A stretch of DNA of 64,000 bases, taken from sequence record NZ_CP028352.1; one strand, given 5' to 3'. A program made the position numbers and the translations under genes. The notes below the pieces were generated by a model. It was not told where the DNA came from. It saw only the letters and a list, made by a program, of their open reading frames with translations, and did not search any database. Of this stretch, positions 15,318-37,161 are shown one piece after another; position 1 is the first letter of the stretch, and the number at the start of each line of letters is the position of its first letter. Source of the stretch: a plasmid.

Positions 15318-15318
15318 A

Positions 15319-16572
15319 ATGCATGAACATATTGAAGCATGTAGCTCTATAGCTAACTTACTAAATTTCAAACACTTTTACTCTGCTGAACAAGAAAGTA
15401 GAAGCATGACTAAAAGAAATCAAGTATTATTTGATAGTTTGAAAAACCTGTCTGAAGAAAACGGTTTTAACAAAAAGGAATATCCCTATCATGAAAAAAT
15501 ATGCATAGCAACAAATGATTCTGAAAAAGATTGGCTTAAAAATATCTCCTCCAGTGAAAAGGTATGTGCTGCTGATTTTGAAATAGTTAATGTTGGAAAT
15601 TGTTTTTCTGTATCCTACTTTTACTATTCCAGTGAAAAATACTTAATTGTTTCTGGCTTGAATGATGTATCCCTTGATGAGGGATTTGAATTTGAAGCGA
15701 TAAATTCAGGGGTTTTTACTTTATTTTCATCATTAAACTTAATCAAGTTTAAAAACATTAGCAATAATATAAGCAAAGTATATAACGAAATACTTAACAA
15801 AGATCCAGATTTAGCCGACCCTAAATTTGTGGATTTGAATAATATAATTAGTTATTTCGAGCCTACATATATATGCAAAATTAATAAAGAAGCTATATTC
15901 TATGAATTACAATTAGACCGTATAGCGGCTTATATTACAATGGCAATCACAAAAGATAACTACCCGACTGATATCCCTGTATTTAGTTTAATTAAAGATC
16001 TAATAATAACAGGAGAGCGTAGTATTAATTTCTCATATCTAGCTAAAGCAATATTTATTAAGGATGAGCCTTATTTGCTTTTTATGGAACTTTACAGAAT
16101 GCTGGAGAGAATATATGCAATTCCAACCATAAAAGCTCTTAAACATGAGTTGTGCATTGGAATGGATAGCCATTGGGAAATTATAAGCTCAATAGAAAAA
16201 ACCACTGGGTGGCGAAAGAAAGAGAACGAAGGGCTATATACACTACTATCACAATTAGAATACTCAATTCTTAATGACGCCTACAACACCTTGAATAAAA
16301 ACCATGGGGATTATTTCAACAATAGCTTAGTCATTAAAAAGCAAAAATTATTGCAAGATCTTGATATTAAGAGTGAATCTTATTCAAGTGCTTGCAGGGA
16401 GCTGGAAGAAGCTATAAAAGTTTGCCTTAGAGATTATATATATAAAACAAGAAATTCTTATGTGCATTATAGAGAGGCTTTAGAATCACAACTGGATCAG
16501 GGAAAAATACATTCTCTATGCGAGTCTTTATTAATGATAATTAATCCTATATATGTGAAGTTGGGAGTATGA
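15319..16572 (+). CDS. Hypothetical protein (417 aa) translationally coupled to the DGQHR gene; a possible C-terminal HEPN-like RNxxxH motif.
   Basis: The start is 2 nt after the upstream stop. IYKTRNSYVHYRE lies near the C-terminus. Very AT-rich. No other recognisable motif. Confidence 0.45.
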   Translation: MHEHIEACSSIANLLNFKHFYSAEQESRSMTKRNQVLFDSLKNLSEENGFNKKEYPYHEKICIATNDSEKDWLKNISSSEKVCAADFEIVNVGNCFSVSYFYYSSEKYLIVSGLNDVSLDEGFEFEAINSGVFTLFSSLNLIKFKNISNNISKVYNEILNKDPDLADPKFVDLNNIISYFEPTYICKINKEAIFYELQLDRIAAYITMAITKDNYPTDIPVFSLIKDLIITGERSINFSYLAKAIFIKDEPYLLFMELYRMLERIYAIPTIKALKHELCIGMDSHWEIISSIEKTTGWRKKENEGLYTLLSQLEYSILNDAYNTLNKNHGDYFNNSLVIKKQKLLQDLDIKSESYSSACRELEEAIKVCLRDYIYKTRNSYVHYREALESQLDQGKIHSLCESLLMIINPIYVKLGV

Positions 16573-16776
16573 TTTTAAAGCATATTTCATATATTGTGAT
16601 TATATCCCTGATTAAAACTAGCCTTTGTTAGTAACATTCGCATGTTGTACGTTTAAAACGTTTAGCGACTCCAGAAACAAAGGCCCCCCATGAGCGAGTT
16701 ATGTACTTTAACTTAAGGAATTTTCCGTTTAAATAGGTTGTCCGTGAAGCCCGCTTTGCATAAAAAGGAGATCAAC

Positions 16777-18105
16777 ATGGCCATGAAACTCATTAAAAAG
16801 AAGGCCCCGCGTGGTGCCCTGAAAAGCTGGTTATCTGAGGATGAAGAAGCTGCCGTTAAGAACTTCTTCGGTCGCAAGCAGGTATGCAATGCGCAGGAAC
16901 GTGCACTAGCGGAGAACGTGATTCATGAAATGCGCGAGAAGGAGCTCTGGCTGCATTGCAGCTGCGTGGGTGGCGATACGCCAGCACTGAACAATGCCAA
17001 ACTGAGATCTGAAACCCAAACGTTGTTTCTGTCCGGGTTTGGCCATAGCCACGACCCATCCTGTCCCATGCACAGGGTCTTTAAGGGTGACGAGGATACT
17101 ACCGGTTCAGGAACCCGTAAAAACGCTGGGAGCAAGCGATTAAACTATCGTGATTTTTTACCAAAAGATGAGTCAGAGACGACTATTAAGGCGCCAGGCA
17201 GCGCAGGATTTACTGGTCAGGATAGAACCAGGCGAAAACGCCGGCCACGAGTTGCACGTTTGCTTCTGACGCTGATTGAAGATGCCGGGCTGAATACTTT
17301 CAGCCCGATCAGCCCGCTGCCTAATCGGGCACCCAGAACATGGCTTGCCGCTCTCGCAGCCTCGGCAGATGCTCAGGAATTTGTGCGCGGGCGCAGGCTT
17401 TCGGAAATCGTACGGTTTCAGCCGACCATGGGCGAGTTTGCCCAGGAAAAATTAATGCTTGAACTGGAACGTACGGATGCCAACTGGCCGGCAGGAAAAG
17501 CCCGGGTGTTTTATCAGATATTTATGTCGGAGCTGGTCAGCCGTGAACATGTTACGTTCGCCTGGAAAGATGGGGAACGCAGGTTTTCTCCGGAGAAGGG
17601 TGTCAGCATCAATGGGGAATCACAGGAAGGCGTGAGGCCGCCTTACTGGGTCATACTGGCCTTCAAACGCTCAGCTGAAGGTAGCGTGATATGCAGCGAA
17701 GGGTATGCGCACGCACTATTCAGACGTAACTGCCCTGTCCCGGTAGACAGTGACCTTGAGAGGCAGACGATGGAAGGTATTGCTGAAGTGGCCAGCTGGC
17801 TTAAAGGCGGAGCAGACGTACTCACCCTCATAAAACCCCTGTTTGATATTGAGGTAGAGATGGAGGGGGAGAAAGGCTTTGTGCTGCCGGATTTTATTAT
17901 TCAGGCCAAATTGCCGGATGGCCGGGAACATGCCGTAGTGGTAGAGACGATGGGATATACCGATGATGAGTACTGCGAACGTAAAGCCGAACAGCATAAA
18001 GGGATGCGCACACTTGGAACCCTTCAGACGGATCCTCCGCGCTGGCCACATGAAGTCACTAAGCCTTTTACCAACCATTTGTATGGTGTAATCAAAAATC
18101 TATAA
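16777..18105 (+). CDS. Hypothetical Cys/His-cluster protein (442 aa) with a possible nuclease-like C-terminal domain.
   Basis: AAGGAG SD before MAMKLIKKK. HCSCVGG...HSHDPSCPMH metal-binding-like cluster. C-terminal GFVLPDFII...AVVVETMGYTDDEY resembles PD-(D/E)xK-type signatures, but this cannot be confirmed by eye. Confidence 0.4.
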   Translation: MAMKLIKKKAPRGALKSWLSEDEEAAVKNFFGRKQVCNAQERALAENVIHEMREKELWLHCSCVGGDTPALNNAKLRSETQTLFLSGFGHSHDPSCPMHRVFKGDEDTTGSGTRKNAGSKRLNYRDFLPKDESETTIKAPGSAGFTGQDRTRRKRRPRVARLLLTLIEDAGLNTFSPISPLPNRAPRTWLAALAASADAQEFVRGRRLSEIVRFQPTMGEFAQEKLMLELERTDANWPAGKARVFYQIFMSELVSREHVTFAWKDGERRFSPEKGVSINGESQEGVRPPYWVILAFKRSAEGSVICSEGYAHALFRRNCPVPVDSDLERQTMEGIAEVASWLKGGADVLTLIKPLFDIEVEMEGEKGFVLPDFIIQAKLPDGREHAVVVETMGYTDDEYCERKAEQHKGMRTLGTLQTDPPRWPHEVTKPFTNHLYGVIKNL

Positions 18106-20657: not shown

Positions 20658-21690
20658 TCACTTAATAGATGGGATATCTTTCAGCCGCGTAGTGTAACGC
20701 GGTGACAACATTTCACGCTTCATCTGCCAGGCACTGTCACGTTCACCCTGACCGGCGAACCATACCTTTCCCTTACCTGAGCGGTTAATGGTGTCCAGTG
20801 CAGCCATCAGCGCATCAGCATTTGCACGCGGCTGCTGCTCGCTGAACATGTCGAATTGCGCGACCCCAGACTGATAAAAATCACCCAGCATGACGCCCGC
20901 TTTAGCGTACCGGTAGCCTTCAAGCCAGATAGTGCTGAGTCCGCGGAGCGCTGACTCAATAATGTCGCGCGTATCATTCGTCGGATAATCGCAGATGCGC
21001 GAGGCGGTATTCGAATACTGTGGCTCATCGCCATGCCGGCCCGTTGCGATGGATACACTGATATGACGGCAGCGCGAATTCTGCTCCCTAAGTTTTTCCG
21101 CCGCACGTGTGGCATACAGCACGATTGCCTGCTGCATATCTTCCAGTTTTGTGACTCTTTCGCCAAATGATCGCGAGTTTAGGATGTGCTGCTTTGGCGG
21201 CGGGGCATCTTCCAGTGCAATACAGGACTCACCATTAAGCTCGCGAGTAGTACGCTCAACGATAACGTCAAAATTTTTCCGTATCATGCTGATGTTGCTG
21301 TCAGCCAGCTGCAGAGCCGTGGTGATCCCAAGCTGGTACATGCGCTTAGTAATGCGCGGCCCAATACCCCAGATATCGCTGACGTCGGTCAGGTCCAGTA
21401 GTTTTCGCTGACGGGTTCGGCTGGACAGGTCTACCACACCCATTGTCTGGGTCCATTTCTTCGCGGCATGGTTAGCCAATTTGGCCAGCGTTTTCGTTGG
21501 GCCGAATCCTACGCCGATAATTAACCCGGTTTCCTTCCGGATGCGCTCTCGCATCTGCTGTCCGAAAGTTTCTAGAGGGATCAGGCTATCGATCCCTGTG
21601 ACGTCAAGAAACGACTCATCAATGGAGTAAACCTCCTGACCTGCGGCCATTTCGCCCAGTATGGCCATCATGCGCGCTGACATGTCGCCA
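20658..21690 (-). pseudogene. umuC: 3' fragment of a second umuC-like gene (lacks the first ~80 codons), cut at the left end of the inserted element.
   Basis: Translation ...GDMSARMMAILGEMAAGQEVYSIDESFLDVTG... aligns from UmuC residue ~80 to the C-terminus. The missing N-terminus is found at 32675-32904 on the same strand. Confidence 0.8.
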
Positions 21691-21933
21691 TTTATGTGGA
21701 ATGCAATTTAAACAAAAAAAATGAGCAACTATTCCTCATGGACTGAAATCCAGAGCCCCACTTATTCAGCCTTAAATTGCTGCAGTTTACCTCCGCTCAG
21801 AGCATAAAGAAGTGAACTGGTAAGACATAGCCGGAAAATCGATTTCCCTGAGAGGGGGTTATCTGCCACGCTTCTTCTGAAGCCCTTAAGCGGGCAATGA
21901 GTCTTATCCCTTACCACCCCCTATGCAGGAAAA

Positions 21934-22935
21934 ATGATGATAAAAAAATACAGGATCCCGGGACTGACCGCGGTGGCGCTTCTTCTCATCAGCACCCTCG
22001 CCGGTGCCGCAGAGGCGCGCTGGACGTTTGACGGCGATATCCACAACAATTCTCTTGCTGTCAGTCCCGATGAAAAAACGGCGGTGGCCTCCTACAGTGA
22101 GCGCCCTGACGTGGTGGTTTACGACCTGGTTAACGGCAAAGTCAGAAAGGTGCTGAAGGGATACGTCACGCCCCGCAATGCGCTTTTCTCCCCCGACGGG
22201 AAGGCTGTATATCTTTCAGACAGCAGCCTCGGCGTGGTCAGAAAAATCAGCACCGGGACGCTTGACGTGGAGACCACGCTGCCGCTGGGGGCCGGGGCAT
22301 TCGGTACAGCCATCAGCCGTGACGGTCAGCGTCTGTATGTGAATAACGAAGCCGCCAGCACACTCTCGGTGTATGACCTGACCCACAACCGGCCCGTTTC
22401 GGTTGTGACGGGTTTTGCTCAGCCCCGTCAGGGCATCAAAATCAGCCCGGACGGCAAAACCGTCTACGTCACCAACTTTAAGGGCGATAAAATCACCCTC
22501 GTTGACGCCGTAACGGGTGAGATTCGCGGCGAGATAACCGGCTTCAGCAAGCTGCGCGCCATTTCTGTCAGCGCCGACGGCCGCACGCTTTACGCGGCTA
22601 ACAGCGGGAGCAACACCATCGCAGTGGTTGACACGCAGAAGCGCGCCATTACGGCAACCATTCCCGTGGGGCAGGACCCTTACGGTGCCGCCCTGACACC
22701 GGATAACCGCTATGTTTACAGCGGCAACCTGGGTGACAACAGCCTCTCCGTTATTGATACCGCCGCCGGTAAGGTGGTCGCCACTGTTACCGGACTGGAT
22801 GCGCCCCGTCAGGCCATCGTTTTCAGTAAAGACAGTGCCCGCGCGTGGGTGCTGAATAAAGACCTCAGTATTTCGGTGGTTGACCTGAAACAGAACCGCG
22901 TCACGGCCACGATTAAAAGCCCGCCGAAGGCCTGA
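21934..22935 (+). CDS. Secreted YVTN-family beta-propeller repeat protein.
   Basis: Signal peptide MMIKKYRIPGLTAVALLLISTLAGAAEA and repeated ~40-aa units (LYVNNEAASTLSVYDL / VYVTNFKGDKITLVDA / LYAANSGSNTIAVVDT / VYSGNLGDNSLSVIDT). Confidence 0.7.
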   Translation: MMIKKYRIPGLTAVALLLISTLAGAAEARWTFDGDIHNNSLAVSPDEKTAVASYSERPDVVVYDLVNGKVRKVLKGYVTPRNALFSPDGKAVYLSDSSLGVVRKISTGTLDVETTLPLGAGAFGTAISRDGQRLYVNNEAASTLSVYDLTHNRPVSVVTGFAQPRQGIKISPDGKTVYVTNFKGDKITLVDAVTGEIRGEITGFSKLRAISVSADGRTLYAANSGSNTIAVVDTQKRAITATIPVGQDPYGAALTPDNRYVYSGNLGDNSLSVIDTAAGKVVATVTGLDAPRQAIVFSKDSARAWVLNKDLSISVVDLKQNRVTATIKSPPKA

Positions 22936-23087
22936 TTCAGTCCCTCCCTCACTCCGGTGCAGTAACAGTCTTTCGCAGGGTGAGGGAGGATAAACCACTT
23001 TTACAGATTTATTTTAGCTGAATAACCTGTTTTAAAGATTTACGTCTGCATGCCTATACTGTTTCTGTTTACACAGGAGATCCCGGC

Positions 23088-24248
23088 ATGAACGATAAAA
23101 TATTTACCCTGCATAACGGAGCACGCCCGCTGAGCGCGCTGAGCAGCCCGAAAGAGGCCATACGTCAGTTCACGCCAAACTGGTTCGCCGCCACCATGGG
23201 AACCGGTATCCTGTCGCTGTCTCTGGCGCAGTTCCCCTGGCCGGTTCCGGGATTGCGCCTCGTCGCGGAAGGGCTGTGGATGTTTAACATCCTGCTGTTC
23301 AGCGTTTTTGCCGTGATGTATCTGGCCCGCTGGGTCATGTACTTCGGTGAGGCAAAGCGCATCTTCGGCCATTCAACCGTGTCCATGTTCTTCGGCACCA
23401 TCCCGATGGGCATGGCGACCATCATCAACGGCCTGCTGGCGTTCGGTCTTCCCCGGTGGGGCGCAGACGTCATTCCGGTGGCGCACGCCCTGTGGTGGCT
23501 GGACGTGGCGATGTCGCTGCTGTGCGGCGTGTGTATTCCTTACATGATGTTTACCCGGCAGCAGCACAGCATTGACCAGATGACGGCCGTCTGGTTACTG
23601 CCGGTTGTGGCTGCCGAGGTCGCAGCGGTCAGCGGCGGCCTGCTGGCGCCGCACATTGCCGACACCCACGCGCAGCTCGGCATCATTATTACCAGCTACG
23701 TGCTGTGGGCTTACTCCGTACCGGTGGCGCTGAGCATCCTTGCCATCCTGCTGCTGCGTATGGCCCTGCACAAGCTGCCGCACGAAAGCATGGCAGCCTC
23801 AAGCTGGCTGGCCCTGGGGCCGATTGGCACCGGTTCGCTCGGTATGCTGGTCATCGGCGGCGATGCGCCCGGGGTGTTTGCCGCGGCGGGCATGCCGGAA
23901 ATCGCTCACATCGCGCAGGGCGTGGGGTTCGTTGCCGGCATTCTCTTCTGGGGCTGCGGCCTGTGGTGGATGCTGCTGGCCACGCTGATAACCGTGCGAT
24001 ACTTTCGTGAAGGCATTCCGTTCAACCTGGGATGGTGGGGCTTTACCTTCCCGCTGGGCGTGTACACCGTCGCCACGCTGAAGCTGTCCACCCTCGTTGA
24101 CCTGGCGTTCTTTAAAGGCTTCGGCGCGCTTCTTGTCGTCATGCTGGCCGCCATGTGGCTGCTTGTCGCTGTGAAGACGGTGCGCGGGGCATGGAGCGGG
24201 AAACTCTTTGTTTCCCCCTGCCTGGCAGGCCTGGACCGGAAGTCGTGA
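23088..24248 (+). CDS. TDT-family (TehA/SLAC1-like) anion channel/transporter.
   Basis: 10-TM protein beginning MNDKIF...FTPNWFAATMGTGILSLSL, the conserved TehA/Mae1 N-terminal signature. Confidence 0.65.
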   Translation: MNDKIFTLHNGARPLSALSSPKEAIRQFTPNWFAATMGTGILSLSLAQFPWPVPGLRLVAEGLWMFNILLFSVFAVMYLARWVMYFGEAKRIFGHSTVSMFFGTIPMGMATIINGLLAFGLPRWGADVIPVAHALWWLDVAMSLLCGVCIPYMMFTRQQHSIDQMTAVWLLPVVAAEVAAVSGGLLAPHIADTHAQLGIIITSYVLWAYSVPVALSILAILLLRMALHKLPHESMAASSWLALGPIGTGSLGMLVIGGDAPGVFAAAGMPEIAHIAQGVGFVAGILFWGCGLWWMLLATLITVRYFREGIPFNLGWWGFTFPLGVYTVATLKLSTLVDLAFFKGFGALLVVMLAAMWLLVAVKTVRGAWSGKLFVSPCLAGLDRKS

Positions 24249-24844
24249 GTGAAACCTGCACGTCGCTGCTGGACCCCTTTCTGCGCGAGGAGCGCCTCGC
24301 GGCGATTACCGCGCCGCACGTAGCCGCGCTGAATCGCTGGGTCAGCGGGCAGCGTCAGGCCGGCGTGGAACTGCCGTGGTTTGATCCGGCCGACGGCGGG
24401 ACCGGGGCCGGACTGCTTGTCCTGCTGCAGTCGCCGGCGCGCAGCAGCCCGTCACCCCGGTTCGTTTCGCGAGATAACCCGGGGCCGGCCCAGCAGAATC
24501 TGGGGCGGTTTCTGGCGGAGGCCGGTATTGCGCGCCGGGACAGCGTGCTGTGGAATACGGTGCCCTGGGTCAGTGACGGGCCGCAGAAACGGCCCTCAGC
24601 GGCGGACATCCGCAGCGGCTGCGCCTGGCTTGAGGGCGTGCTGGCGTATCTGCCCGCGCTGCGCGTGGTGGTGCTGGCCGGTGCCGTAGCGGCGCAGGCC
24701 CGCGGGACGGTCAGCTGCCTTCGCCCCGGCGTCACGGTGCTGACTATGCCTCACCCCAGCCCGCTGTCGCTTTGCACAAGCCCGGCAGTGCCGGAAAACA
24801 TCCGCCAGGTGCTCCGCGAGGCACGCACTGCGCTGGCGGGCTGA
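24245..24844 (+). CDS. Uracil-DNA-glycosylase-superfamily-like protein (GTG start overlapping the upstream stop).
   Basis: GTGA overlap with the TehA-like stop. The weak match to the UDG fold (LLVLLQSP...TVPWVSDGP...LPALRVVVLAG) is a tentative assignment. Confidence 0.35.
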   Translation: MSETCTSLLDPFLREERLAAITAPHVAALNRWVSGQRQAGVELPWFDPADGGTGAGLLVLLQSPARSSPSPRFVSRDNPGPAQQNLGRFLAEAGIARRDSVLWNTVPWVSDGPQKRPSAADIRSGCAWLEGVLAYLPALRVVVLAGAVAAQARGTVSCLRPGVTVLTMPHPSPLSLCTSPAVPENIRQVLREARTALAG

Positions 24845-24897
24845 GAGCGCCGCCGGAATAATACTGACAGGTTTTGCAACCGGCTCTATACTCACAG

Positions 24898-24960
24898 TAC
24901 AGGGTGATGGCGTTCCACCCTTCCCAACCGCTCCGTTCAGGAGCTGATGACGCCTGATGT
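24898..24960 (+). ncRNA. Fluoride riboswitch (crcB RNA motif) aptamer upstream of the pyrophosphatase-enolase-crcB operon.
   Basis: ACAGGGUGAUGGCGUUCCACCC...AACCGCUCCGUUCAGGAGCUGAUGACGCCUGAUG matches the conserved GGnGAUGGnnUUCnCC ... AACCGCC ... CUGAUGAUnCCUAC blocks, including the GGCG/CGCC pseudoknot pair. Preceded by TGACAG-N16-TATACT promoter-like hexamers. Confidence 0.7.
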
Positions 24961-25041
24961 GACTCTTGATTTTCAGGAGGTGCGTCAGGCCGTCCTTACT
25001 TTCCTCCCGGCCTGCGTACTTCCCTCTATGGGGAGAGACCT

Positions 25042-25950
25042 GTGATACACGTTTTTGGCCACATTAATCCTGACAGCGACGCCATCTGCACGACCGTCGT
25101 CACCGCACACTGGCTGACCGGGCGCGGAATGGATGCCCGCGCATGGCGTCTCGGCGAGGCTAACCGGGAAACCCGCTTTATCTTTGACGCCGCCGGCCTC
25201 ACGCTGCCGCCGCTGCTCGCTTTTCCGCTAAAGGATGAACGGGTCTGGCTGGTCGATTTCACCGAACCGGCACAGGGGCCTGACGACCTGCTCCGGAGCA
25301 ACGTCGTGGGCATCACTGACCACCACCGGCTGGGCGGGCTGATAACGCAACTGCCGCCGGAGGTACATATTCGCCCGGTTGGCAGCAGCGCCACGCTGCT
25401 CTGGCTGCTGATGGACGCAGAAGCGCGCCGCATGCTGCCCCCGACGCTCGCCGTGCTTCTGCTGGGCGCACTCCTGAGTGATACCGTGAATCTTCGCTCG
25501 CCGACCACCACCGAAGACGATATCCGTTCGGCGACCGAACTGGGCGCACTGTCTGGCGTAAACCGCAGAGCCTTCGCCCGTGACCTCCTCACCGCAAAAA
25601 CAGACGTCAGCGGCCTCAGCGCACAGCAGCTGCTGGACAGGGACCTCAAGGCCTTCGTCATTGCCGGCACCGACGTGCGCATAGCCCAGATTGAGGTCAG
25701 CTCACCGTCACAGGTTGCCCCCGTGATGAACGACCTGCTCGCAGCACTGGCGTATCTGGCAGACCAGTCGGGAGCTGGCCTGGCGGTGCTGATGCTGACC
25801 GACATTCGTACCGGGTTCTCAACGCTTTACTTCGCCGGGCGGGAGAGCGTTAACGTCGCCTCCTGCTCCGTACCGGGCATGCTCAGCCGCAAAAAGCAGC
25901 TTCTGCCGTGGCTTGAGTCCCGCCTTAACCAGAACGGAGGTTCATTATGA
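25042..25950 (+). CDS. ppaC: Family II (DHH/DHHA2) Mn-dependent inorganic pyrophosphatase.
   Basis: N-terminal VIHVFGHINPDSDAICTTVVTAHWL (DHH motif I/II). 302 aa. Confidence 0.75.
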   Translation: MIHVFGHINPDSDAICTTVVTAHWLTGRGMDARAWRLGEANRETRFIFDAAGLTLPPLLAFPLKDERVWLVDFTEPAQGPDDLLRSNVVGITDHHRLGGLITQLPPEVHIRPVGSSATLLWLLMDAEARRMLPPTLAVLLLGALLSDTVNLRSPTTTEDDIRSATELGALSGVNRRAFARDLLTAKTDVSGLSAQQLLDRDLKAFVIAGTDVRIAQIEVSSPSQVAPVMNDLLAALAYLADQSGAGLAVLMLTDIRTGFSTLYFAGRESVNVASCSVPGMLSRKKQLLPWLESRLNQNGGSL

Positions 25951-26372
25951 CCTGCTACACCCACGCACTGATACTTGTGAACGATAAAAACGACGGCACT
26001 CTTCTGCTGAAACGGGCGGTCGCGCTGGCGCAGCCGCTCGGCATGAAAATCACCCTGGCGCACATCAGCGACGACTACCGGGAGATGAACTACGTGTCTG
26101 ACAGCCTGATGGACGACGTCGTGTCGGAGGAGGTGCTGAAAGGCAAAGCGTTTATGAGTGAGCTGGCGGCCTCCGTGCCTGAGACGGTAGACACGCGGGA
26201 GCTGGTGACCATGCGCCGCGTTGAGGACGTGGAGAAGTGCATCGCGGAGCTGGGCGTGGACCTCGTGCTTGCCGGGCACCGAAACCGCTTTATGGGAATG
26301 CTCACCTCCCGCTCGGCGGACTACATCAACCACCTTACGGTGGATGTGCTTATCACTCACCTGACTGACTGA
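25947..26372 (+). CDS. Universal stress protein (UspA family).
   Basis: 141 aa. ATGA overlap with ppaC. C-terminal GxxG...GSVT-like ATP-binding region (VLAGHRNRFMGMLTSRSADYINHLTVDVLI). Confidence 0.6.
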   Translation: MTCYTHALILVNDKNDGTLLLKRAVALAQPLGMKITLAHISDDYREMNYVSDSLMDDVVSEEVLKGKAFMSELAASVPETVDTRELVTMRRVEDVEKCIAELGVDLVLAGHRNRFMGMLTSRSADYINHLTVDVLITHLTD

Positions 26373-26387
26373 ACCGGGAGAAACACC

Positions 26388-27677
26388 ATGCGCTTTACAC
26401 TGGATAACGTAACCGCCCGTGAAATTCTTGACTCGCGCGGCAACCCCACCGTTGAAGTTGAAGCCCGGACTACGGACGGGATGATGGCGCGCGCCTCGGT
26501 GCCTTCCGGGGCCAGTACCGGCTCGCGCGAGGCCGCAGAGCGCCGCGACGGTGACGCACACCGTTTTGGCGGTAAAGGCGTGCTGGATGCCGTCAGGGCG
26601 GTTAATACGGAAATCTGCCAGGCCGTGCGCGGCAGCGACGTGCGCGAACAGCGTCAGCTGGACAACATCATGCTGGCGCTGGACGGCACGGAGAACAAGA
26701 GTCGCCTGGGTGCCAATGCCATTCTGGGCGTGTCGCTGGCGGTGGCCCGGCTGGCGGCACAGGCCTCCCACGAGCCGCTGTGGCGCTACCTGGGTGGCCT
26801 GCAGGCGAACCTGCTGCCCGTGCCGTGCATGAACATTATCAACGGCGGCGTGCACGCCCGCGGTCAGGGCGCGGACTTTCAGGAGTTCATGATAGCCCCG
26901 CACGGCGCACCCACGCTGCGCGAGGCCGTACGTCAGGGCAGCGAGGTCTACCAGGCGCTGCGCCAGATCCTGCTGGACAACAACCTGTCGGCGGCAGTGG
27001 GCGACGAAGGCGGTTTTGCGCCCGCCGTGTCGTCAAACCGCGACCCGCTGGCGTTTATCGTACAGGCCATTGAGAAAGCCGGATACCGGCCCGGAGAAGA
27101 CATCAGCATCTGCATGGACCCTGCCTCAAGTGAGTTTTTCGCAGACGGCAAATATCATCTGCGCACCGAGGGCAGCGCGCTGAGCGCGGCGGAAATGACG
27201 GCATACTACGGCGAGCTGATGGACCAGTTTCCCGTCATCCTGCTGGAAGACGGCCTGGCCGAGGACGACTGGGCGGGCTGGAAGCATTTGCACCGGCAGC
27301 TTGCGGGCAGGGCCGAACTGGTTGGTGACGACCTGTTTGTCACCAACGTGAAGTATATCCAGCGCGGCATTGACGAAAACCTCGCCAGCGCCGCACTGAT
27401 TAAACTCAATCAGATAGGCTCGCTCAGCGAAACGCTGGACGCCGTGGCGCTCTGCCAGCGGCACGGCTGGGGCGCGTTCATGTCCCACCGCAGCGGGGAA
27501 ACCACGGACACGTTCCTTGCCGACCTGACGGTGGCCCTGCGCGCGGGACACCTGAAAACCGGCGCGCCGTGCCGCGGCGAACGCGTGGAAAAGTACAACC
27601 AGCTGATGCGCATTGAGCAGGCGCTGGGTGACGATGCGCACTACGCGGGGCTTCATGCGTTTGTGCGCCGCACGTAG
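26388..27677 (+). CDS. eno: Enolase (phosphopyruvate hydratase), an extra plasmid/island-borne copy.
   Basis: MRFTLDNVTAREILDSRGNPTVEVEARTTDG... and ...SHRSGETTDTFLADLTVAL (enolase signatures). Confidence 0.85.
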   Translation: MRFTLDNVTAREILDSRGNPTVEVEARTTDGMMARASVPSGASTGSREAAERRDGDAHRFGGKGVLDAVRAVNTEICQAVRGSDVREQRQLDNIMLALDGTENKSRLGANAILGVSLAVARLAAQASHEPLWRYLGGLQANLLPVPCMNIINGGVHARGQGADFQEFMIAPHGAPTLREAVRQGSEVYQALRQILLDNNLSAAVGDEGGFAPAVSSNRDPLAFIVQAIEKAGYRPGEDISICMDPASSEFFADGKYHLRTEGSALSAAEMTAYYGELMDQFPVILLEDGLAEDDWAGWKHLHRQLAGRAELVGDDLFVTNVKYIQRGIDENLASAALIKLNQIGSLSETLDAVALCQRHGWGAFMSHRSGETTDTFLADLTVALRAGHLKTGAPCRGERVEKYNQLMRIEQALGDDAHYAGLHAFVRRT

Positions 27678-27714
27678 CACATCCGCCGGACGGTCCCCGT
27701 CCGGCACAGAAGGA

Positions 27715-28428
27715 ATGCCTGTGGCCTCTGCAACGCTGATCCTTTTGCGTCACGGCGAAAGCCAGTGGAACCGGGAAAACCGTTTTACCGGATGGACAGA
27801 CGTGCCGCTGACGGTCAGGGGGCGGCAGGAGGCCGACCGGGCCGGTGACGCGTTGCGGGCAGCGGGCCTGATGCCCGACCGTGTCTTCACCTCGGTGATG
27901 ACACGCTGCGTTCACACGGTCTGGCGGGTGCTGGACCGTCTTGACCGCAGCTGGACGCCCGTGGAAAAGAGCTGGCGACTGAATGAGCGCCACTACGGGG
28001 CGCTGCAGGGGCTGAACAAGGACGACGCTGCCCGGATAATGGGGGAAGAGACTGTCCGGCTCTGGCGCAAAAGCTTCAGCGGCATTCCGCCCGCGGACGC
28101 GGAGGCTCCGGCGCAGCTGCGTCGGGATCTGCGCTACCGCCGCGTTGCGCTGGCCGACCTGCCTGCAACGGAAAGCCTGGAAATGACGCTGCGCCGCGTC
28201 ATGCCGTACTGGCAGCATGCTGTGGTACCGCAGTTACGCTGCGGAAGTTCCGTTCTGGTTGTGGCGCACGGCAACACGCTGCGCGCCCTGACCGCCTTCC
28301 TGGACGGCATGCCTTACGACAGCGTGGCACAGCTGCACATCCCGACCGGCGTGCCGGTCGTATATCAGATGGATGCGGCCGCCCAGGTCGTGTCCCGTGA
28401 TGTTCTGAATATTAAAAAAAAGGAGTGA
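27715..28428 (+). CDS. gpmA: 2,3-bisphosphoglycerate-dependent phosphoglycerate mutase (GpmA-like).
   Basis: LILLRHGESQWNRENRFTGWTDV...LNERHYGALQGLNK...VVAHGNTLRAL is collinear with E. coli GpmA. Start chosen at MPVASA with a GAAGGA SD. Confidence 0.8.
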   Translation: MPVASATLILLRHGESQWNRENRFTGWTDVPLTVRGRQEADRAGDALRAAGLMPDRVFTSVMTRCVHTVWRVLDRLDRSWTPVEKSWRLNERHYGALQGLNKDDAARIMGEETVRLWRKSFSGIPPADAEAPAQLRRDLRYRRVALADLPATESLEMTLRRVMPYWQHAVVPQLRCGSSVLVVAHGNTLRALTAFLDGMPYDSVAQLHIPTGVPVVYQMDAAAQVVSRDVLNIKKKE

Positions 28429-28805
28429 ACGTGAATCAGCTTTTTGCCGTCATCACCGGCGGTGCTTTAGGGTGTGTTATCCGCTGGCAGCTGGGCGCGC
28501 GCCTGAATGCGCTTTTTCCGGACCTGCCGCCGGGGACGCTGCTGGTCAACCTGCTGGGTGGATTTATCATCGGGGCGGCCCTGGCGTATTTTCTGCGCCA
28601 TCCCGGCCTCGATCCGGCCTGGCGGCTGCTCATTACCACCGGGCTGTGTGGAGGAATGACGACCTTCTCCACATTTTCAGCTGAGGTTTTTGCCCTGCTG
28701 CAGTCAGGCAGCTATGCCTGGGCAGCCGCCTCGGTGCTGATACACGTGCTGGGTTCGCTGGCCATGACGGCGGCCGGATTTTATATCATGACGCTGTGTG
28801 GTTAA
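28425..28805 (+). CDS. crcB: Fluoride ion channel CrcB/Fluc.
   Basis: 126-aa four-TM protein MNQLFAVITGGALGCVIRWQL...GFIIGAAL...GLCGGMTTFSTFS (Fluc signature). ATGA overlap with gpmA. Confidence 0.8.
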   Translation: MNVNQLFAVITGGALGCVIRWQLGARLNALFPDLPPGTLLVNLLGGFIIGAALAYFLRHPGLDPAWRLLITTGLCGGMTTFSTFSAEVFALLQSGSYAWAAASVLIHVLGSLAMTAAGFYIMTLCG

Positions 28806-28972
28806 CCCGGACCGTACGGCCTTTAATCCAGGCGAGACCTCAGTGCAGCGACCGCTGCACTGAGGTCAGACAGTTCAGTATATTGTTCAGAAGCGCTCTC
28901 TGCGGGCCTGACCCGACAGGGTTTACGCCTGTAATGCTTCTCGTAAATCCGGGGCACTGTCGTGACAGAGTT

Positions 28973-29386
28973 TCAGGTCTGTCTGTTCTGGTAAAGGTCC
29001 CAGCGATTGCCATAGATGTCCTCAAACACGACAACCATTCCGTATTCTTCCTCCCGCGGCTCCTGACAGAAGTGGACGCCTTTTGCCTTCATGGCATTGT
29101 AGTCGCGCCAGAAGTTGTCGGTCTGCAGGAACAGAAAAACCCGTCCGCCGCACTGATTGCCAATAAAGCTTTCCTGCCGATCGTTCGACGCGCGGGCAAG
29201 AAGAATAGCACAGTCGCTGTCAGGGTCCGGCGTCACCACGACCCAGCGCTTACCCGGCTGCGGCGTGTCCTCAATCAGGGTAAAGCCCAGCTTATCGGTG
29301 TAATACTCAATTGCACGATCGTAGTCATCGACCACAACAGCCACATACCCCATACATCGCTTCTGTTTTCTCATCTGCGGCTCCAT
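28973..29386 (-). CDS. VOC/glyoxalase-bleomycin-resistance family protein.
   Basis: 137 aa. GYVAVVVDDYDRAIEYYTDKLGF...EDIYGNRWDL has the typical paired beta-alpha-beta-beta-beta module. Confidence 0.65.
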   Translation of the reverse strand: MEPQMRKQKRCMGYVAVVVDDYDRAIEYYTDKLGFTLIEDTPQPGKRWVVVTPDPDSDCAILLARASNDRQESFIGNQCGGRVFLFLQTDNFWRDYNAMKAKGVHFCQEPREEEYGMVVVFEDIYGNRWDLYQNRQT

Positions 29387-29499
29387 CAGTTACGGCATCA
29401 CGCCCGCTATAATCAGATTTATATCAGATACGACGTTCGGTCGTCTGTACTGACTCTGCGCTGACACCCTCAGGCCGGACATTGTAAGCATCTGATCCG

Positions 29500-31617
29500 T
29501 CAGGATTGTGGATCCAGTCTTGTAAGAACCCGCTCAACCTTTTCAGCATCCTGCTCCAGTATGGATCTCTCATCGGGAGTGAGCGGAACCTCTTCGAGGT
29601 AACGCCGGATGGATGCTTTACTCTCCATTATCAGCCCGCGCGCGCTGTCTTTAAGCAGGTTAAAATCGCAGCCGATGCAGGCCATCCGGTGCTGACAGCT
29701 GCTCCAGAAAGGGTTCGTGCAGTATGAGTCACCCAGATCATAGTACGTCGCGGGTCCGGTCAGACTGGCGGCTTCCGGATCGTGGTCAATCAGCACGCTT
29801 ATCATATGAGAGACCCTGTCGGCTTTGACGAACGAAGCGGCCAGCTGAGTCGGACGTATACGAATATAATGCAGGGTTGACTGTGGGGATGAATGGCCGG
29901 ACCACTGCATCAGCTCATGTAAAGACATCCCCCCGGCAACACTGGCCAGTGCTGTAACGGCAGAAGCACGGCCGCGGTGGCTGGTAATGGGACCGCGTGA
30001 ATCTTCCACAGACATACCCGCTCTGGCGCAGAGAAGCGGAATGACAGTGAGATTTATTATGTTTCTTCCCACCGGTTTACCCCGGTTCTGAAACAGATAA
30101 CGAACTTTTTCACCGGTGCGTTCATCCGTAAATGCTGCCTGCTCCTGAGGACGCTCACTGAGCCAGATATCGACATATTTTTTCACAACAGACGAGACTG
30201 GCTTAACAAAAGCTTTAGACGTTTTGCCGGCTGGTACGCTGAGATAGCACAGAGTACCGGCCGGGACAGGGCTGCTGTTTTCCTGCAGAATGTCATCCAC
30301 CTGTGGGGTAACGCAGTTCATTGTCAGGCGCAACAGCTCGTTCTGTCGCAGCCCGGCATGCGTCCAGATAACCGCCATAGCCTGAAGCATAGACAGGGGA
30401 TAATGAATTTCGCTCAGCAAATCTTCCTGACGCAGGTTCAGACTCGCCCAGACCAGTCTGAGCCAGACCGGATCATCAATAACGCGGGGGCTCACGCCCT
30501 GACGAAACAGCGGTGTATCAGGCGTGGACAGATGGCGGGCCGGACTGAACTTTAATCGCCCCCATCCCCAGCTTTCATAATCAAGCATAAAACGGCGAAT
30601 GGCATAAACAAACCGGCTGCGGGAATGCGGCATCAGGGGTTCTCCTGAGCGTTTTGATTGTCTGCCCCCTTTCTTTGTATCCAGTGACAGCTCGTCTACT
30701 TTCAGTCTGCCGACCATTGCAATAAAGCTGGCGCAGGTTTCCATTGTCCAGTCAGAGGGCTCGCATATTTCCGGCTTTTCCCGGGCAAGCCACAGGCCAC
30801 AGCGGAGAATAAAACTGTACTGAGTTTCTCTGGAGCGGGGGCGGAGTACCGACGTTTCCCGCCACATCCGGCACCACCGCGCCCAGTCAGGTGCGATACC
30901 TTGTGTTGGCTTTTCATGCCATTCCTGATAGTTACGCATTCTCAGGGGGCTCTCTATAATTCCCATAGCAGCAAGCGCACAGGATATTTTCCCCGTAGCT
31001 CTTGCGATTCCCCGGTCGTGGCAGTTCTGCCCCCGCCACAGGAGGTCTGTCGTAAAAGTTCCAAGACGCGGGTCGTTGTTCATCAGCATCAGTACACCCA
31101 GCATACCGGACATATTGTGCTTCTGATTCTGCCCGGCATATCCCATTGAGATCAGAACGTCTGTCAGCCGGTTAATTTCATGACTGACAATACTCCGGCC
31201 ATATATAGCACTGGCGTACAACGACGGTGCGCCATGCACTGGCAGGCTGAGCGGAGAAGAAAACGGACCGAGATGAAAGGCAAAAGCAGCAAGCAGGGGC
31301 CTGCCGGAACAGTGTTGCTCACAGAGCGTTAACCATCTTTCCTGCGTCCACTGCCAGCAGGGCTGACCCGACCGGTGCGTTTCTGCAAGAACGGCAAGGA
31401 GGGTAATTCTGGCAAGTCTGACACTGATACTGCTTCGTGAGGCAATGTCCTGCAGAGGCAGCAGCAAATATGGCAGGGAATCTGGCCGATCGAGCGCAGC
31501 AGACCGCCGGTAGCCTGTACGTATCGCGTCTTTTTCCTCAGGACTCAGCGCATCGCTCAGCTGATAATCTGTGCGTTTGAAAGGTATATAAGTGACTGTG
31601 TTTTTTTTTCCACTCAT
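29500..31617 (-). CDS. Large tyrosine recombinase (705 aa), Tn554 TnpB-like, of the element.
   Basis: C-terminal catalytic region ...LMQWSGHSSPQSTLHYIRI... (H-x-x-R ... Y). ATGA overlap with the 335-aa recombinase gene. Confidence 0.65.
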   Translation of the reverse strand: MSGKKNTVTYIPFKRTDYQLSDALSPEEKDAIRTGYRRSAALDRPDSLPYLLLPLQDIASRSSISVRLARITLLAVLAETHRSGQPCWQWTQERWLTLCEQHCSGRPLLAAFAFHLGPFSSPLSLPVHGAPSLYASAIYGRSIVSHEINRLTDVLISMGYAGQNQKHNMSGMLGVLMLMNNDPRLGTFTTDLLWRGQNCHDRGIARATGKISCALAAMGIIESPLRMRNYQEWHEKPTQGIAPDWARWCRMWRETSVLRPRSRETQYSFILRCGLWLAREKPEICEPSDWTMETCASFIAMVGRLKVDELSLDTKKGGRQSKRSGEPLMPHSRSRFVYAIRRFMLDYESWGWGRLKFSPARHLSTPDTPLFRQGVSPRVIDDPVWLRLVWASLNLRQEDLLSEIHYPLSMLQAMAVIWTHAGLRQNELLRLTMNCVTPQVDDILQENSSPVPAGTLCYLSVPAGKTSKAFVKPVSSVVKKYVDIWLSERPQEQAAFTDERTGEKVRYLFQNRGKPVGRNIINLTVIPLLCARAGMSVEDSRGPITSHRGRASAVTALASVAGGMSLHELMQWSGHSSPQSTLHYIRIRPTQLAASFVKADRVSHMISVLIDHDPEAASLTGPATYYDLGDSYCTNPFWSSCQHRMACIGCDFNLLKDSARGLIMESKASIRRYLEEVPLTPDERSILEQDAEKVERVLTRLDPQS

Positions 31618-32624
31618 CAGTAAGCCCCCGCCTGAAAAATAAGGCCAGCGATTTTCCTGTCGGTTTCAGCTACGGCTGCGGTTATCCGGCCAGACAGATC
31701 GGACCCTGACAGATGGATATAAATCTGTGTGGTGCGCGGATCTCTGTGTCCAGCATAAGTCGCCAGCTCATGCAGCTTCCAGCCGGCCCGAGCCAGATGG
31801 GTCAGGCGAAGATGGCGAAAGGTGTGGGTTGTAATCTGTGGAAGCCCCGTATCCAGAGCCCATCTGCGCACGGTTTTACTCCAGCTCCACACAGAAAGAA
31901 GAGTGCCGTAATTACGATCAGAAAATGAACGGAACAACGCCCCCTGTGTCCGGCCAGCCCGCTTCAGCTGCCGGAAAAGGTTTGCCAGTACCGGCGTAAT
32001 GTCCGGACCATAGCACACAACCCTTTCACGCCGGCTTTTCGTTGTTTCCGGGCGGATACGGATCAGGCGATGAGCAGGGTCGATATCCTCAAGCGTCAGG
32101 GCTGTCACCTCTGCACGGCGGAGTGCACCAAAATAGGCCAGTGCGAGCATCAGCCGGTCCCGCAGGGAAGCAGCTGAAACATGTTTAAGAAATCTCAGCC
32201 ATTGTTCATTGTCAGGTATTACAGGTAAGCGGGTGATACGCGGGACAAGCCCCCGCCCGGTATAAATGGCACCCGGTAAACCCGCGCGGGGTAGCGGATT
32301 GAGACTGCATATATCCTGATAAACAAGAAAGTCATACCAGAGACGGATAGCAGACAGGCGCAGCTGGAGCGTGGCACTGGCCGCAGGGTAAGGCATGCCA
32401 GGCAGCTGAGGGCGGATGTAGGCGGCGAGGTCTTCAAACCGGGCTTTTTCAGGTTCAATTCCGTTCTCGCTGCAGAACGAAAAGTAATGATGAAGGGCGC
32501 TACGGTAGGCGGTGAGTGTGCCCTGCGCCCGCCCGAGATCGGATAACAGTTTCAGCCAGCGCTCTGCCAGCAATAGGCTTTGTTCATTCGGTGGGATCAG
32601 CATCGTGTTCTCCTCTGACAGCAA
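31617..32624 (-). CDS. Tyrosine recombinase (335 aa), XerC/Tn554 TnpA-like, of the element.
   Basis: N-terminal core-binding domain; C-terminal THTFRHLRLTHLARAGWKLHELATYAGHRDPRTTQIYIHLS (R-H-R-Y). Confidence 0.75.
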   Translation of the reverse strand: MLSEENTMLIPPNEQSLLLAERWLKLLSDLGRAQGTLTAYRSALHHYFSFCSENGIEPEKARFEDLAAYIRPQLPGMPYPAASATLQLRLSAIRLWYDFLVYQDICSLNPLPRAGLPGAIYTGRGLVPRITRLPVIPDNEQWLRFLKHVSAASLRDRLMLALAYFGALRRAEVTALTLEDIDPAHRLIRIRPETTKSRRERVVCYGPDITPVLANLFRQLKRAGRTQGALFRSFSDRNYGTLLSVWSWSKTVRRWALDTGLPQITTHTFRHLRLTHLARAGWKLHELATYAGHRDPRTTQIYIHLSGSDLSGRITAAVAETDRKIAGLIFQAGAY

Positions 32625-32674
32625 TATCGCTGCTCAAAGTTTACTCACTCAATGTTGCATTCCACTTAACTTAC

Positions 32675-32904
32675 TACAGCTCGTAATTCGAACTGAATAC
32701 ATGCACGCCGTTCTGCCTGAAAAATCGCTCATTCTGAAAAAGCGGCGCCGCCATTTTTATCCCCAGGCGCTTTGCTTCCGCCGATCGCGCAATCACGCAG
32801 CCGTCATTATTCGAAACGACAACAATTGGTTTGCCGCGCAGATCGGGCCTGAATACGGTTTCACATGAGGCATAAAAGTTGTTGGCATCGGCCAGCGCAA
32901 ACAT
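32675..32904 (-). pseudogene. umuC: 5' fragment of the disrupted umuC-like gene (codons 1 to ~77).
   Basis: MFALADANNFYASCETVFRPDLRGKPIVVVSNNDGCVIARSAEAKRLGIKMAAPLFQ...FSSNYEL, then cut by the element end. The in-frame stop is contributed by element DNA. Confidence 0.8.
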
Positions 32905-32906
32905 TC

Positions 32907-33284
32907 CTATTCTCCTGCCGGTCCGTTGAATCCCACTCCAGCTACATCGGTGAGGGCATAGGCAACTACTCCCCATACGGGAAGCATCTGGCTCACATCA
33001 AGCAGCGTTACAGTCTCGTCAGCATCCAGCGCCTGCAGGGCAGGAACCGGATTAAGCAGCAGGCGCCTTAATGTCAGCTCCCCGTCAAGTTCAGCCACGA
33101 TAAGCTGACCGTGTGCGGGTATCAGCGCGCGATCGATGGCCAGTACGGACCCTTTAACAATACCGGCGTCGGGAAAATTACTGTCGCTGCGCATCAGATA
33201 GGTCGAGTAAGGGGAAAGATGCACAAGATCACCCAGATTAAGGCGCGTTTCAGTGTAGTTCTGGGCCGGACTCTGAAAGGCCAT
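32907..33284 (-). CDS. umuD: UmuD-like protein, divergent (probably non-cleaving; catalytic Ser/Lys not conserved).
   Basis: Collinear with UmuD (FQSPAQNYTETRLNL..., GVVAYAL). But GDSM is replaced by SDSNF, and TVKKLQL by TLRRLLL (Lys to Arg). Confidence 0.6.
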   Translation of the reverse strand: MAFQSPAQNYTETRLNLGDLVHLSPYSTYLMRSDSNFPDAGIVKGSVLAIDRALIPAHGQLIVAELDGELTLRRLLLNPVPALQALDADETVTLLDVSQMLPVWGVVAYALTDVAGVGFNGPAGE

Positions 33285-33422
33285 GCAAATACTCCATTCT
33301 TTACAGCTTTTCAGCCTTGTAAGGTGAACCAGATAACGACCAGGTGTCCGTCGCGCGGGCGCATTTAATACTCCTGATATCAGTATACGTCGCTATCCTT
33401 ACATCAACAGCAGGAGGTAACT

Positions 33423-34103
33423 ATGTGTGGAAGATTTGCGCAGTACAGCAGCCGCGATGATTATTTTGATGCACTCAGCCTGACACCGGACGAAATCACA
33501 TTCGATCCGGAACCTCTCGGGCGCTTTAACGTAGCACCAGGCACTAAAGTACTCCTTCTGAACGAACAGGAAGATTCGCTGCGCCTCGATCCTGTGTACT
33601 GGGGCTACGGACCGGAATGGTGGGATAAGCAGCCACTTATCAACGCGCGCGGTGAGACGGCTGCGAGCGGCCGCATGTTTAAGCCTCTCTGGAATCATGG
33701 CCGCGCTATCGTGCCTGCTGACGGCTGGTTCGAATGGCAGAAAGAAAGTGGTGAGAAGCAGCCATTCTTCATTTTTCACAAAAAGAAGGAGCCTCTTTAT
33801 TTTGCCGCAATCGGCAGGCAGCCGTACGGGCAGGATCACGGCAAAGAGGGCTTCGTGATTGTCACCTCAGCCAGCAATCAGGGCATGGTGGATATACATG
33901 ACAGGCGGCCGCTGGTGATTACGCCTGATGCCGTTCGTGAGTGGCTCAGCAATGAAACGTCTCCAGCGCGTGCAGAAGAAATTGCTCATGACGCAGCCGT
34001 TCCGGAAAAAGCATTTACCTGGCATCCCGTCAGCAAAAAAGTAGGCAATATACATAACCAGGGAAAAGAACTGATTGAGGCTGTAGTGGACAGTGATGTT
34101 TAG
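33423..34103 (+). CDS. yedK: SOS-response-associated peptidase (SRAP/YedK) abasic-site DNA-protein crosslinking protein.
   Basis: MCGRFAQYSS... (invariant N-terminal Cys2), ...RPLVITPD..., 226 aa. Confidence 0.8.
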   Translation: MCGRFAQYSSRDDYFDALSLTPDEITFDPEPLGRFNVAPGTKVLLLNEQEDSLRLDPVYWGYGPEWWDKQPLINARGETAASGRMFKPLWNHGRAIVPADGWFEWQKESGEKQPFFIFHKKKEPLYFAAIGRQPYGQDHGKEGFVIVTSASNQGMVDIHDRRPLVITPDAVREWLSNETSPARAEEIAHDAAVPEKAFTWHPVSKKVGNIHNQGKELIEAVVDSDV

Positions 34104-36929: not shown

Positions 36930-37030
36930 ACTATACTCCCCGCATAGAGCAACAGCTTCTATGCAGATTCAGTGAGCCCCGTTAGTCTTCTCCGTGTCGC
37001 CAAACTCAGGAAGATTATCGGGGTTTTCTT
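36930..37030 (+). ncRNA. copA: Probable CopA-type antisense RNA (copy-number control) in the repA1 leader region (approximate coordinates).
   Basis: The call rests on position alone: it lies between repA2/copB and tap, on the strand opposite repA1, as in IncFII replicons. The exact ends were not determined. Confidence 0.35.
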
Positions 37031-37161
37031 TTTTCTGGCCTTCACTAATCAGTCAGCACCAGACTTCTGCCACCTTTCGGCGTGGCAAACCAGGAACTTA
37101 ATTGCGAGCTAATGTATCACCACAGGTTTGCACAATCAATTTCCGTGAATAGTCACCTTCA

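Follow-up and report, generated by a model that had tools for sequence, protein, structure and literature searches.

A fluoride module on a probable umuC/rulB-targeting integrative element: junctions, relatives, and cargo

Within a 64,000-nt stretch of plasmid record NZ_CP028352.1, hereafter referred to as the window, a umuC gene is interrupted by a DNA segment at positions 21691-32674 that bears a fluoride module. This segment is very probably a non-self-transferring integrative element that belongs to a widespread family found in the Tyr77 codon of umuC and rulB genes, the only core genes of which encode two tyrosine recombinases, a small one of ~330 amino acids (aa) and a large one of ~705-735 aa. 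The element would travel on conjugative plasmids and on integrative and conjugative elements (ICEs) by residing in the umuC genes that these carry.

In itself, the element is a further copy of an already published island in a known umuC/rulB-inserting family, and both the island and the function of its cargo are already described in the literature. Possibly new are the anatomy of the junctions across the entire family, the connection of the Pantoea island with the Pseudomonas and Klebsiella elements, and what these two suggest about the mechanism. The umuDC island of Pantoea and Erwinia, the effector elements of P. syringae, and the Klebsiella and Citrobacter inserts with Ni/Co resistance or restriction-modification genes appear as one family, whose branches are treated separately in the accessible parts of the literature. 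In plant-associated and clinical Enterobacterales, the element points to a complete, self-regulating fluoride-tolerance module that would move among conjugative plasmids and ICEs, for which a plasmid-borne polymerase gene offers a conserved codon as the landing pad. Genome data can be searched for such elements with a simple sequence signature made up of the common termini and the target.

The interrupted umuC gene

Excision of the 10,984 bp of the element in silico yields a single open reading frame (ORF) for a UmuC protein of 420 aa, which reads ...FSSNYELYGDMSARMM... / ...VFSSNYELYGDMSARMM... In this fusion of the flanks, the UmuC frame is lost if either element boundary is moved by one base; the boundary can slide by a single A, which leaves the restored UmuC unchanged. 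In 20 Pantoea plasmids, an annotated and intact umuC gene aligns without a break to an 800-bp segment spanning the fused junction, with 80-86% identity. These plasmids represent empty sites and, therefore, the split state of umuC is derived and not ancestral, a distinction on which the original prediction, made earlier from the sequence alone, had hinged. Its further statements on the insertion agree with these data: removal of the segment results in a contiguous UmuC, the 10,984-bp insert carries imperfect inverted repeats at both ends, and no target duplication is present at the window junctions. The reading of the 5' flank as UmuC residues 1-77 was correct in its coordinates (32675-32904) and had to be revised in its content, as the flank codes for residues 1-76 and contributes the nucleotides TA of codon 77. 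Together with the element end, this TA creates the in-frame stop codons TAG TAA after UmuC codon 76. The umuC flanks exhibit a G+C content of ~50%, compared with 60-68% in the cargo of the element.

It had also been proposed that the insertion hit a second polymerase operon of the plasmid. Indeed, another, uninterrupted umuC gene is located at positions 2027-3283 (plus strand) of the window, which shows 55-69% protein identity to the interrupted copy. The target motif is present in this second gene, and no insertion is found there.

Junctions and target of the element family

A scan of one genome per species for relatives of the large recombinase (IntB) identified 43 further loci from Pantoea, Erwinia, Kluyvera, Pseudomonas, Xenorhabdus, Sphingomonas, and others, at which the UmuC halves were mapped and the junctions were extracted. 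Relatives of IntB were found in 619 plasmids. On the recombinase-proximal side (attL), 35 junctions with 30 distinct flanks were obtained, all of which read ...AAY TAY NNN YTN TA^GTAAGTTA-N-GTGGAATGC (the caret marks the junction), and the 24 junctions of the distal side (attR) all read ...ATTCCACATAAA ^ Y, followed by codon 78. The hosts of these junctions include Pantoea, Erwinia, Klebsiella, Citrobacter, Pseudomonas, and Sphingomonas. All but one of the attL junctions (34/35) are located in umuC at TA^Y, and a single orientation is observed. At the level of the junction sequences, the family is thereby shown to be specific for both site and orientation, with insertion inside the Tyr77 codon (TA^Y) of UmuC/RulB-type polymerase genes. 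The target corresponds to a conserved SNY-x-LYGDMS-like motif, which is best kept in its SNY-x-LY part. One 8.0-kb member with normal termini, from Pantoea rwandensis (locus L047, positions 9063-17068), occupies an intergenic, non-umuC site, ...ATATCTGATA ^ TTGGAATACG..., which is an apparent secondary target; the neighboring gene on the opposite strand resembles an HxlR-like regulator by eye only.

The termini are shared as well. Elements of the family begin and end with GTAAGTTAAGTGGAATGC... / ...ATTCCACATAAA; the terminus at the recombinase end follows the pattern given above for attL, and the 12 terminal bases of the distal end, ATTCCACATAAA, are identical throughout. When the two ends are combined into a deduced joined form, CATTCCACATAA-AGTAAG-TTAAGTGGAATG, a 6-bp spacer is enclosed by 12-nt arms that agree in 11 of their 12 positions, as in the classical core site of a tyrosine recombinase. 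Target sequence gives way to element sequence at the left edge of the spacer in every junction. AGTAAG stays with the recombinase-proximal end at 35/35 attL junctions and the target's own 6 bp (ATGGCG, ACGGTG, ATCACA, etc.), which have only the first A in common with this spacer, are always found at the distal end. Neither a variable 6-bp carry-over nor a 6-bp footprint was detected among the 35 attL and 24 attR junctions, and the sequence outside attR is umuC.

Uniform junctions might also stem from a single ancestral event, namely an ancient, immobile insertion that diverged together with umuC. The identity of the elements is weakly correlated with that of their flanks (r = 0.46), as this scenario would suggest. 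However, ten pairs of loci, which form five distinct groups, share 97.5-100% identity over the first 1.1 kb of the element while their 228-nt 5' umuC fragments are only 52-70% identical. Both members of one such pair reside in the same genome, and another pair is divided between Kluyvera-type and Escherichia hosts. Near-identical elements in such divergent umuC alleles indicate recent, independent insertions and largely refute an ancient origin. In addition, the cargo is wholly different among relatives, intact umuC alleles coexist with the interrupted ones, and both recombinase genes are intact, which leaves an immobile ancestral insertion as a highly improbable explanation. In a plasmid of Kosakonia cowanii Pa82, the element is 99-100% identical to that of the window, and the umuC allele is cut at the same codon; its protein identity to the window copy amounts to 69% for the N-terminal and 56% for the C-terminal fragment. 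The combination of near-identical elements with divergent alleles argues indirectly for the recombinase-mobilized fluoride unit in a plasmid umuC gene that had originally been predicted.

Family members differ in size, from 4.2 kb up to over 12 kb, and the smallest ones (4.2 kb in pDC3000A and 4.8 kb in Pseudomonas) have room for the two recombinases and cargo only. In Citrobacter, the cargo comprises a type II restriction-modification system; the Klebsiella relative carries genes for Ni/Co resistance, that of P. aeruginosa a chlorite dismutase gene, and pDC3000A of P. syringae the gene for a type III effector. DNA similar to umuC was found in 4,796 plasmids, of which 4,089 are conjugative, and the frequency of umuC on conjugative plasmids explains its suitability as a target for an element that is unable to transfer itself.

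The element in rulB of pDC3000A, termed an “integron-like element,” resembles the window element in its termini (TAGTAAGTTAAGTGGAATGC... / ...CATTCCACATAAA), its Tyr-codon target, its orientation, and its two-recombinase module, and the two IntB proteins are 54% identical. It differs from the window element, which contains 8 kb of fluoride and other genes, in its size of 4.2 kb, its single effector cargo, and its pseudomonad host. Effector elements in rulB of P. syringae were reportedly described by Arnold in 2000/2001 and by Jackson in 2011, as relayed by Rhodes in 2014. The term “integron-like” is a misnomer for elements of the pDC3000A type, which apparently lack attC sites and a cassette structure. 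According to the accessible part of a 2014 study, earlier work had established rulB as a hotspot for “integron-like elements,” including those of pDC3000A and the avrPpiA1 region, with the integrase gene starting 60 bp from rulB' (Rhodes, 2014; PMC4542609).

Several relatives exhibit composite arrangements. Some of them hold an intact umuDC operon just inside the distal end and others contain two consecutive units of an element end and a 3' umuC fragment (L006, 22172-24894; L026, 19778-21892; L042, 9471-14405), which suggests serial insertions into umuC copies borne by such elements. A distant two-recombinase clade, with IntB proteins 31-34% identical to that of the window, is also associated with truncated umuC genes in K. 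pneumoniae pKP3 (L052, 5755-15287) and E. coli p1ColV5155 (L053, 5549-9957). In this clade, umuC is broken near residue 38-51, and its 3' part directly adjoins the recombinase genes, which read in the opposite direction. Both umuC parts were found in pKP3, together with cargo that includes WYL-domain and MPN/Mov34-family genes, and only the 3' part was found in p1ColV5155. Several recombinase lineages thus seem to have converged on umuC.

The two recombinases and related element classes

The recombinase genes are adjacent and overlap by one base, as the stop codon of intA and the start codon of intB share the sequence TGATG. IntA most likely starts at the ATG at position 32603, which follows a putative GAGGAG ribosome-binding site, and would then comprise 328 aa; an alternative, longer start results in 335 aa (31617-32624). 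The original prediction was accurate with regard to the adjacent pair and the 705 aa of the large protein; its 335-aa small recombinase and its ATGA overlap are replaced by the values given here. Both proteins match the Pfam Phage_integrase family (E-values of 1e-25 and 4.5e-10). The R..HxxR..H..Y residues of IntA align with the XerD structure 1a0p. In IntB, R424, H547, R550, H575, and Y584 are invariant in 44/44 aligned relatives, the most distant of which is 45% identical, and sequence alignment thus indicates that both recombinases have intact catalytic residues. The same 44 relatives share an invariant C-terminal Cys/His cluster (C633, H643, C647, and C650); C641 is kept in at least 90% of them and is invariant in a 12-sequence alignment that reaches a relative with 33% identity. 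An AlphaFold model of IntB (pLDDT 71.8) matches only the generic core-binding and catalytic domains of tyrosine recombinases, and homologues of the large protein carry solely the generic name “tyrosine-type recombinase/integrase.” In the Kosakonia cowanii locus (L003), the small recombinase gene at ~2770-3780 is absent from the gene table, shows seven mismatches and one gap relative to the window, and may be a frameshifted pseudogene.

An identity as XerC/XerD housekeeping recombinases, which would have spoken against the original prediction, was rejected since both proteins stay far under the equivalog cut-offs, with IntA scoring 96.5 bits against the NCBIfam model for XerC (cut-off 335) and 92.9 bits against that for XerD (cut-off 330), and since the genes are located inside a mobile insert. 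Similarly, an integron was rejected, as the integron-integrase model yields 55.8 bits at a cut-off of 265 and the cargo is made up of ordinary operons that have a promoter and a riboswitch of their own (no attC search was made).

The original prediction had named the element “Tn554-like.” Transposons of the Tn554 family encode TnpA/TnpB-type recombinases and a TnpC-like helper and carry 6 bp of their previous site. The element shares with Tn554 of Staphylococcus the overlapping genes for a small and a large tyrosine recombinase, the strong site and orientation specificity, and the lack of a target duplication, features that are common to Tn554 and related element classes (Idola, 2023; PMC10214605). 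Transfer functions are likewise missing from both. However, Tn554 requires TnpC, and a third core gene (TnpC-, Srap-, or Tfp-like) was not found in the element, as the sole ORF downstream of intB codes for a VOC/glyoxalase protein according to Pfam and the 4.2- and 4.8-kb family members hold two recombinases plus cargo. The junctions described above likewise differ from those of Tn554, with AGTAAG as the inner 6 bp at all 35 attL junctions and umuC as the outer sequence at the other end, so that nothing is carried over. The hosts are Proteobacteria, while Tn554 lives in Firmicutes, and no Tn554-specific profile was matched in the NCBIfam scan, in line with the names of the homologues. The element is set apart by its gene content and its junctions; the earlier designation was consequently not retained, and membership in the Tn554 family is very unlikely.

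[quoted passage not shown] SEs with tmexCD-toprJ also insert into umuC-like genes (PMC9769766), and SEs, ILE-FH elements, and tmexCD-toprJ elements resemble the window element in their location in umuC/rulB-like genes on plasmids or ICEs, their imperfect terminal inverted repeats, their 6-bp spacer, and their inability to transfer themselves (PMC10214605; Rhodes, 2014; Dao, 2022, preprint). Imperfect inverted-repeat ends that enclose a 6-bp spacer when joined are a criterion for SEs (PMC10214605) and are also seen here in the joined form derived from the ends; the one-sided junction pattern suggests strand bias. SEs possess four core genes (intA, tfp, intB, and srap) compared with two in this family, and neither a 6-bp footprint nor a quasi-duplication is present at the junctions. 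ILE-FH elements, which probably correspond to the SEs of Idola (2023; PMC10214605), comprise four genes, three of them recombinase-like, and use a GAT triplet as the insertion site (Rhodes, 2014; PMC4542609); for these elements, a 3-bp direct repeat takes the place of the footprint. The published insertion points of SEs and ILE-FH (GAT, or C/TATCGA) differ from TA^Y, and the published target appears to resemble the S-I-D-E codons situated ~23 codons downstream of Tyr77. Finally, a BLASTP comparison of IntA and IntB with the SE-like four-gene module of a P. aeruginosa plasmid (L051) revealed no similarity (E > 0.6). An assignment to the SEs is therefore very unlikely. This module (3947-9329 of L051; 392, 576, 679, and 154 aa, with two annotated integrases) exhibits an SE/GInt-like core layout and is arranged back to back with an element of the two-recombinase type, an ISL3 element separating the two.

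For the two-recombinase family, the junctions suggest an unusual order of events. An ordinary two-step exchange over a non-homologous spacer would, once replicated, yield both arrangements of the spacer, and only one is seen, so that exchange of a single strand is the simplest reading. In this model, exchange at the left edge of the spacer would involve one defined strand only and need no spacer homology, and replication or a second step with a strong strand bias would then resolve the resulting junction. Recombination between integron attC and attI sites and the integration of CTX phage are known cases of a one-strand exchange that is resolved by replication.

Expression of the recombinases could be provided by the target. 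The intA gene starts 71 bp from the umuC' junction in the window, and 60-71 bp across the family, with no terminator predicted between the junction and intA; intA and intB would thus be read from the umuD promoter. RNAalifold detected no conserved pairs, and hence no conserved hairpin, in this 71-nt leader among 22 family members. Of 31 family loci, ~20 have a LexA box (CTGT-N8-ACAG) upstream of umuD, in support of the published idea that the SOS response drives expression of the recombinases; a LexA-controlled rulAB promoter driving the integrase is a proposal relayed in the accessible part of Rhodes (2014; PMC4542609). The one-sided junctions at 35 left and 24 right ends, including several independent insertions, and the LexA boxes at about two thirds of the sites are compatible with a minimal two-protein integration system that operates without crossover homology, exchanges one strand, relies on replication for resolution, and is triggered by the SOS promoter upon conjugative entry or DNA damage. 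As a whole, this scheme is a tentative and rather doubtful possibility.

The fluoride module and its surroundings

The coordinates of the element, its ends, and its cargo are compiled in Table 1. A fluoride riboswitch ahead of ppaC, usp, eno, gpmA, and crcB was predicted originally and is confirmed by Rfam, Pfam, and NCBIfam. All conserved positions of the RF01734 aptamer are present in the window, and a promoter-like site is located directly upstream. According to fold prediction, a stable hairpin that extends to ~24995 pairs the 3' strand of the aptamer with downstream sequence, and this hairpin is probably the expression platform that competes with the aptamer.

Table 1. Features of the element and of its flanks in the window.
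Feature	Position	Strand	Details and evidence
3' part of interrupted umuC	20658..21690	-	third base of codon 77 (at 21690), residues 78-420, stop; tblastn, flank fusion
Element end distal to recombinases (attR side)	21691..21705		TTTATGTGGAATGCA; on umuC strand ...TGCATTCCACATAAA
YncE-like seven-bladed beta-propeller	21934..22935	+	N-terminal signal-like segment; Pfam, NCBIfam; annotation of NZ_CP068441
TDT/SLAC1-family anion or dicarboxylate transporter	23088..24248	+	PF03595, E 3.6e-93; under TehA equivalog cut-off
Uracil-DNA glycosylase superfamily protein	24245..24844	+	PF03167; annotation
Promoter-like site CTGACA-17-TATACT	24864..24892	+	10/12 positions, best in scan; consensus match only
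Fluoride riboswitch aptamer	24894..24963	+	RF01734, Rfam 50.2 bits (gathering score 34)
ppaC, family II Mn-dependent DHH/DHHA2 inorganic pyrophosphatase	25042..25950	+	NF003877, E 4.5e-81; PF01368, PF02833
usp, universal stress protein	25947..26372	+	PF00582
eno, enolase	26388..27677	+	TIGR01060, 584 bits
gpmA	27721..28428	+	TIGR01258, NF010713
crcB, fluoride channel	28431..28805	+	NF010792, 178 bits; PF02537; annotated start
VOC/glyoxalase-family protein	28973..29374	-	PF00903, E 3e-19; no TnpC or Srap counterpart
intB, large tyrosine recombinase (705 aa)	29500..31617	-	Pfam, alignments of relatives, fold match
intA, small tyrosine recombinase (328 aa from ATG 32603)	31617..32603	-	Pfam, NCBIfam, XerD alignment
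Element end adjoining recombinases (attL side)	32656..32674		on umuC strand GTAAGTTAAGTGGAATGCA; repeat TGCATTCCACTTAA at 32656-32669
5' fragment of interrupted umuC	32675..32904	-	codons 1-76 (32677-32904) and TA of codon 77 (32675-32676); tblastn, flank fusion
umuD-like S24 peptidase gene	32907..33284	-	upstream of interrupted umuC; target operon context, outside element

The module corresponds in its order and in its similar gene lengths to the operon of E. cloacae strain FRM, in which a fluoride riboswitch precedes ppaC-uspA-eno-gpmA-crcB (PMC5533749). Fluoride raises the expression of this operon 10- to 170-fold, and the operon, which was shown to confer fluoride resistance, is required for growth at 4,000 mg/L (Liu, 2017; PMC5533749). 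The likeness refers to gene order and architecture and not to sequence identity. Unlike the operon of the window, that of FRM resides on the chromosome with orf5249 behind it, and no location in umuC or beside such recombinases is described for it (PMC5533749). By analogy with the FRM operon, the fluoride-bound riboswitch would turn on crcB for fluoride export along with additional copies of enolase and pyrophosphatase, the enzymes that fluoride inhibits.

Several observations weigh against the overall picture of a mobile element that confers fluoride tolerance. A terminator scan of the region detected no canonical intrinsic terminator after the riboswitch, and the resistance presumed for the window module derives from the shared operon architecture. 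Neither a LexA box nor a strong promoter match was found upstream of the umuD-like gene of the window (intergenic region 33285-33422) and, therefore, coupling to the SOS response is not supported for this copy. The strand-specific model draws solely on the uniformity of the junctions, and the comparison of elements and alleles, in which no circular form, excision, or transposition of the family was observed, speaks for mobility indirectly.

A 12.5-kb region of the window matches 79 plasmids, chiefly from Pantoea and Erwinia. The same arrangement is present in P. agglomerans ZJU23 with 98% identity including the flanks, pEB102 matches positions 21818-30979 at 89%, and other Pantoea plasmids match at 93-98%. 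The novelty that had been implied for the fluoride unit does not hold, as the island was published in 2015 and again in 2018. The accessible text of the first study describes a “umuDC island” of ~11 kb and 60% G+C that interrupts the umuC genes of ICEPan, pEB102, pEI70, and P. vagans C9-1 and has its “XerC/XerD” genes adjoining the 5' umuC fragment; the text contains no mention of fluoride or crcB (De Maayer, 2015; PMC4458695). The same 11-gene fragment appears as R4' of pPV989-94 in the accessible text of the second, where crcB and fluoride riboswitches are noted (Xu, 2018; PMC5971314). As far as these texts extend, the element of the window agrees with the umuDC island and R4' in its size of ~11 kb, its G+C content of ~60%, its location in umuC, its two “XerC/XerD-like” recombinases beside a short 5' umuC fragment, and its 11 genes, and represents a distinct sequence variant thereof; the termini and the link to the Pseudomonas elements are not defined in them.

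Besides the fluoride module, the element carries four cargo genes, coding for the YncE-like, TDT, uracil-DNA glycosylase-family, and VOC/glyoxalase proteins. The first three are located upstream of the riboswitch, and nothing ties this trio to fluoride. The original prediction had counted a TehA-like channel among the fluoride set; the protein in question belongs to the TDT/SLAC1 family, and its link to fluoride is unsubstantiated.

Outside the element, the umuD-like gene begins about at the start of mature UmuD' and lacks the N-terminal cleavage region; the position of the catalytic Lys reads Arg, as judged by eye. A gene for an SRAP/YedK-like SOS-response-associated peptidase (33423-34103, plus strand) is divergent from the umuD-like gene, and such a neighbor beside umuD is also found in P. 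agglomerans ZJU23 and in a Citrobacter plasmid (L001, L005). A few kb from the element, a CopA-like antisense RNA (RF00042, 69 bits) at 36944-37032 on the plus strand suggests an IncFII-type replicon.

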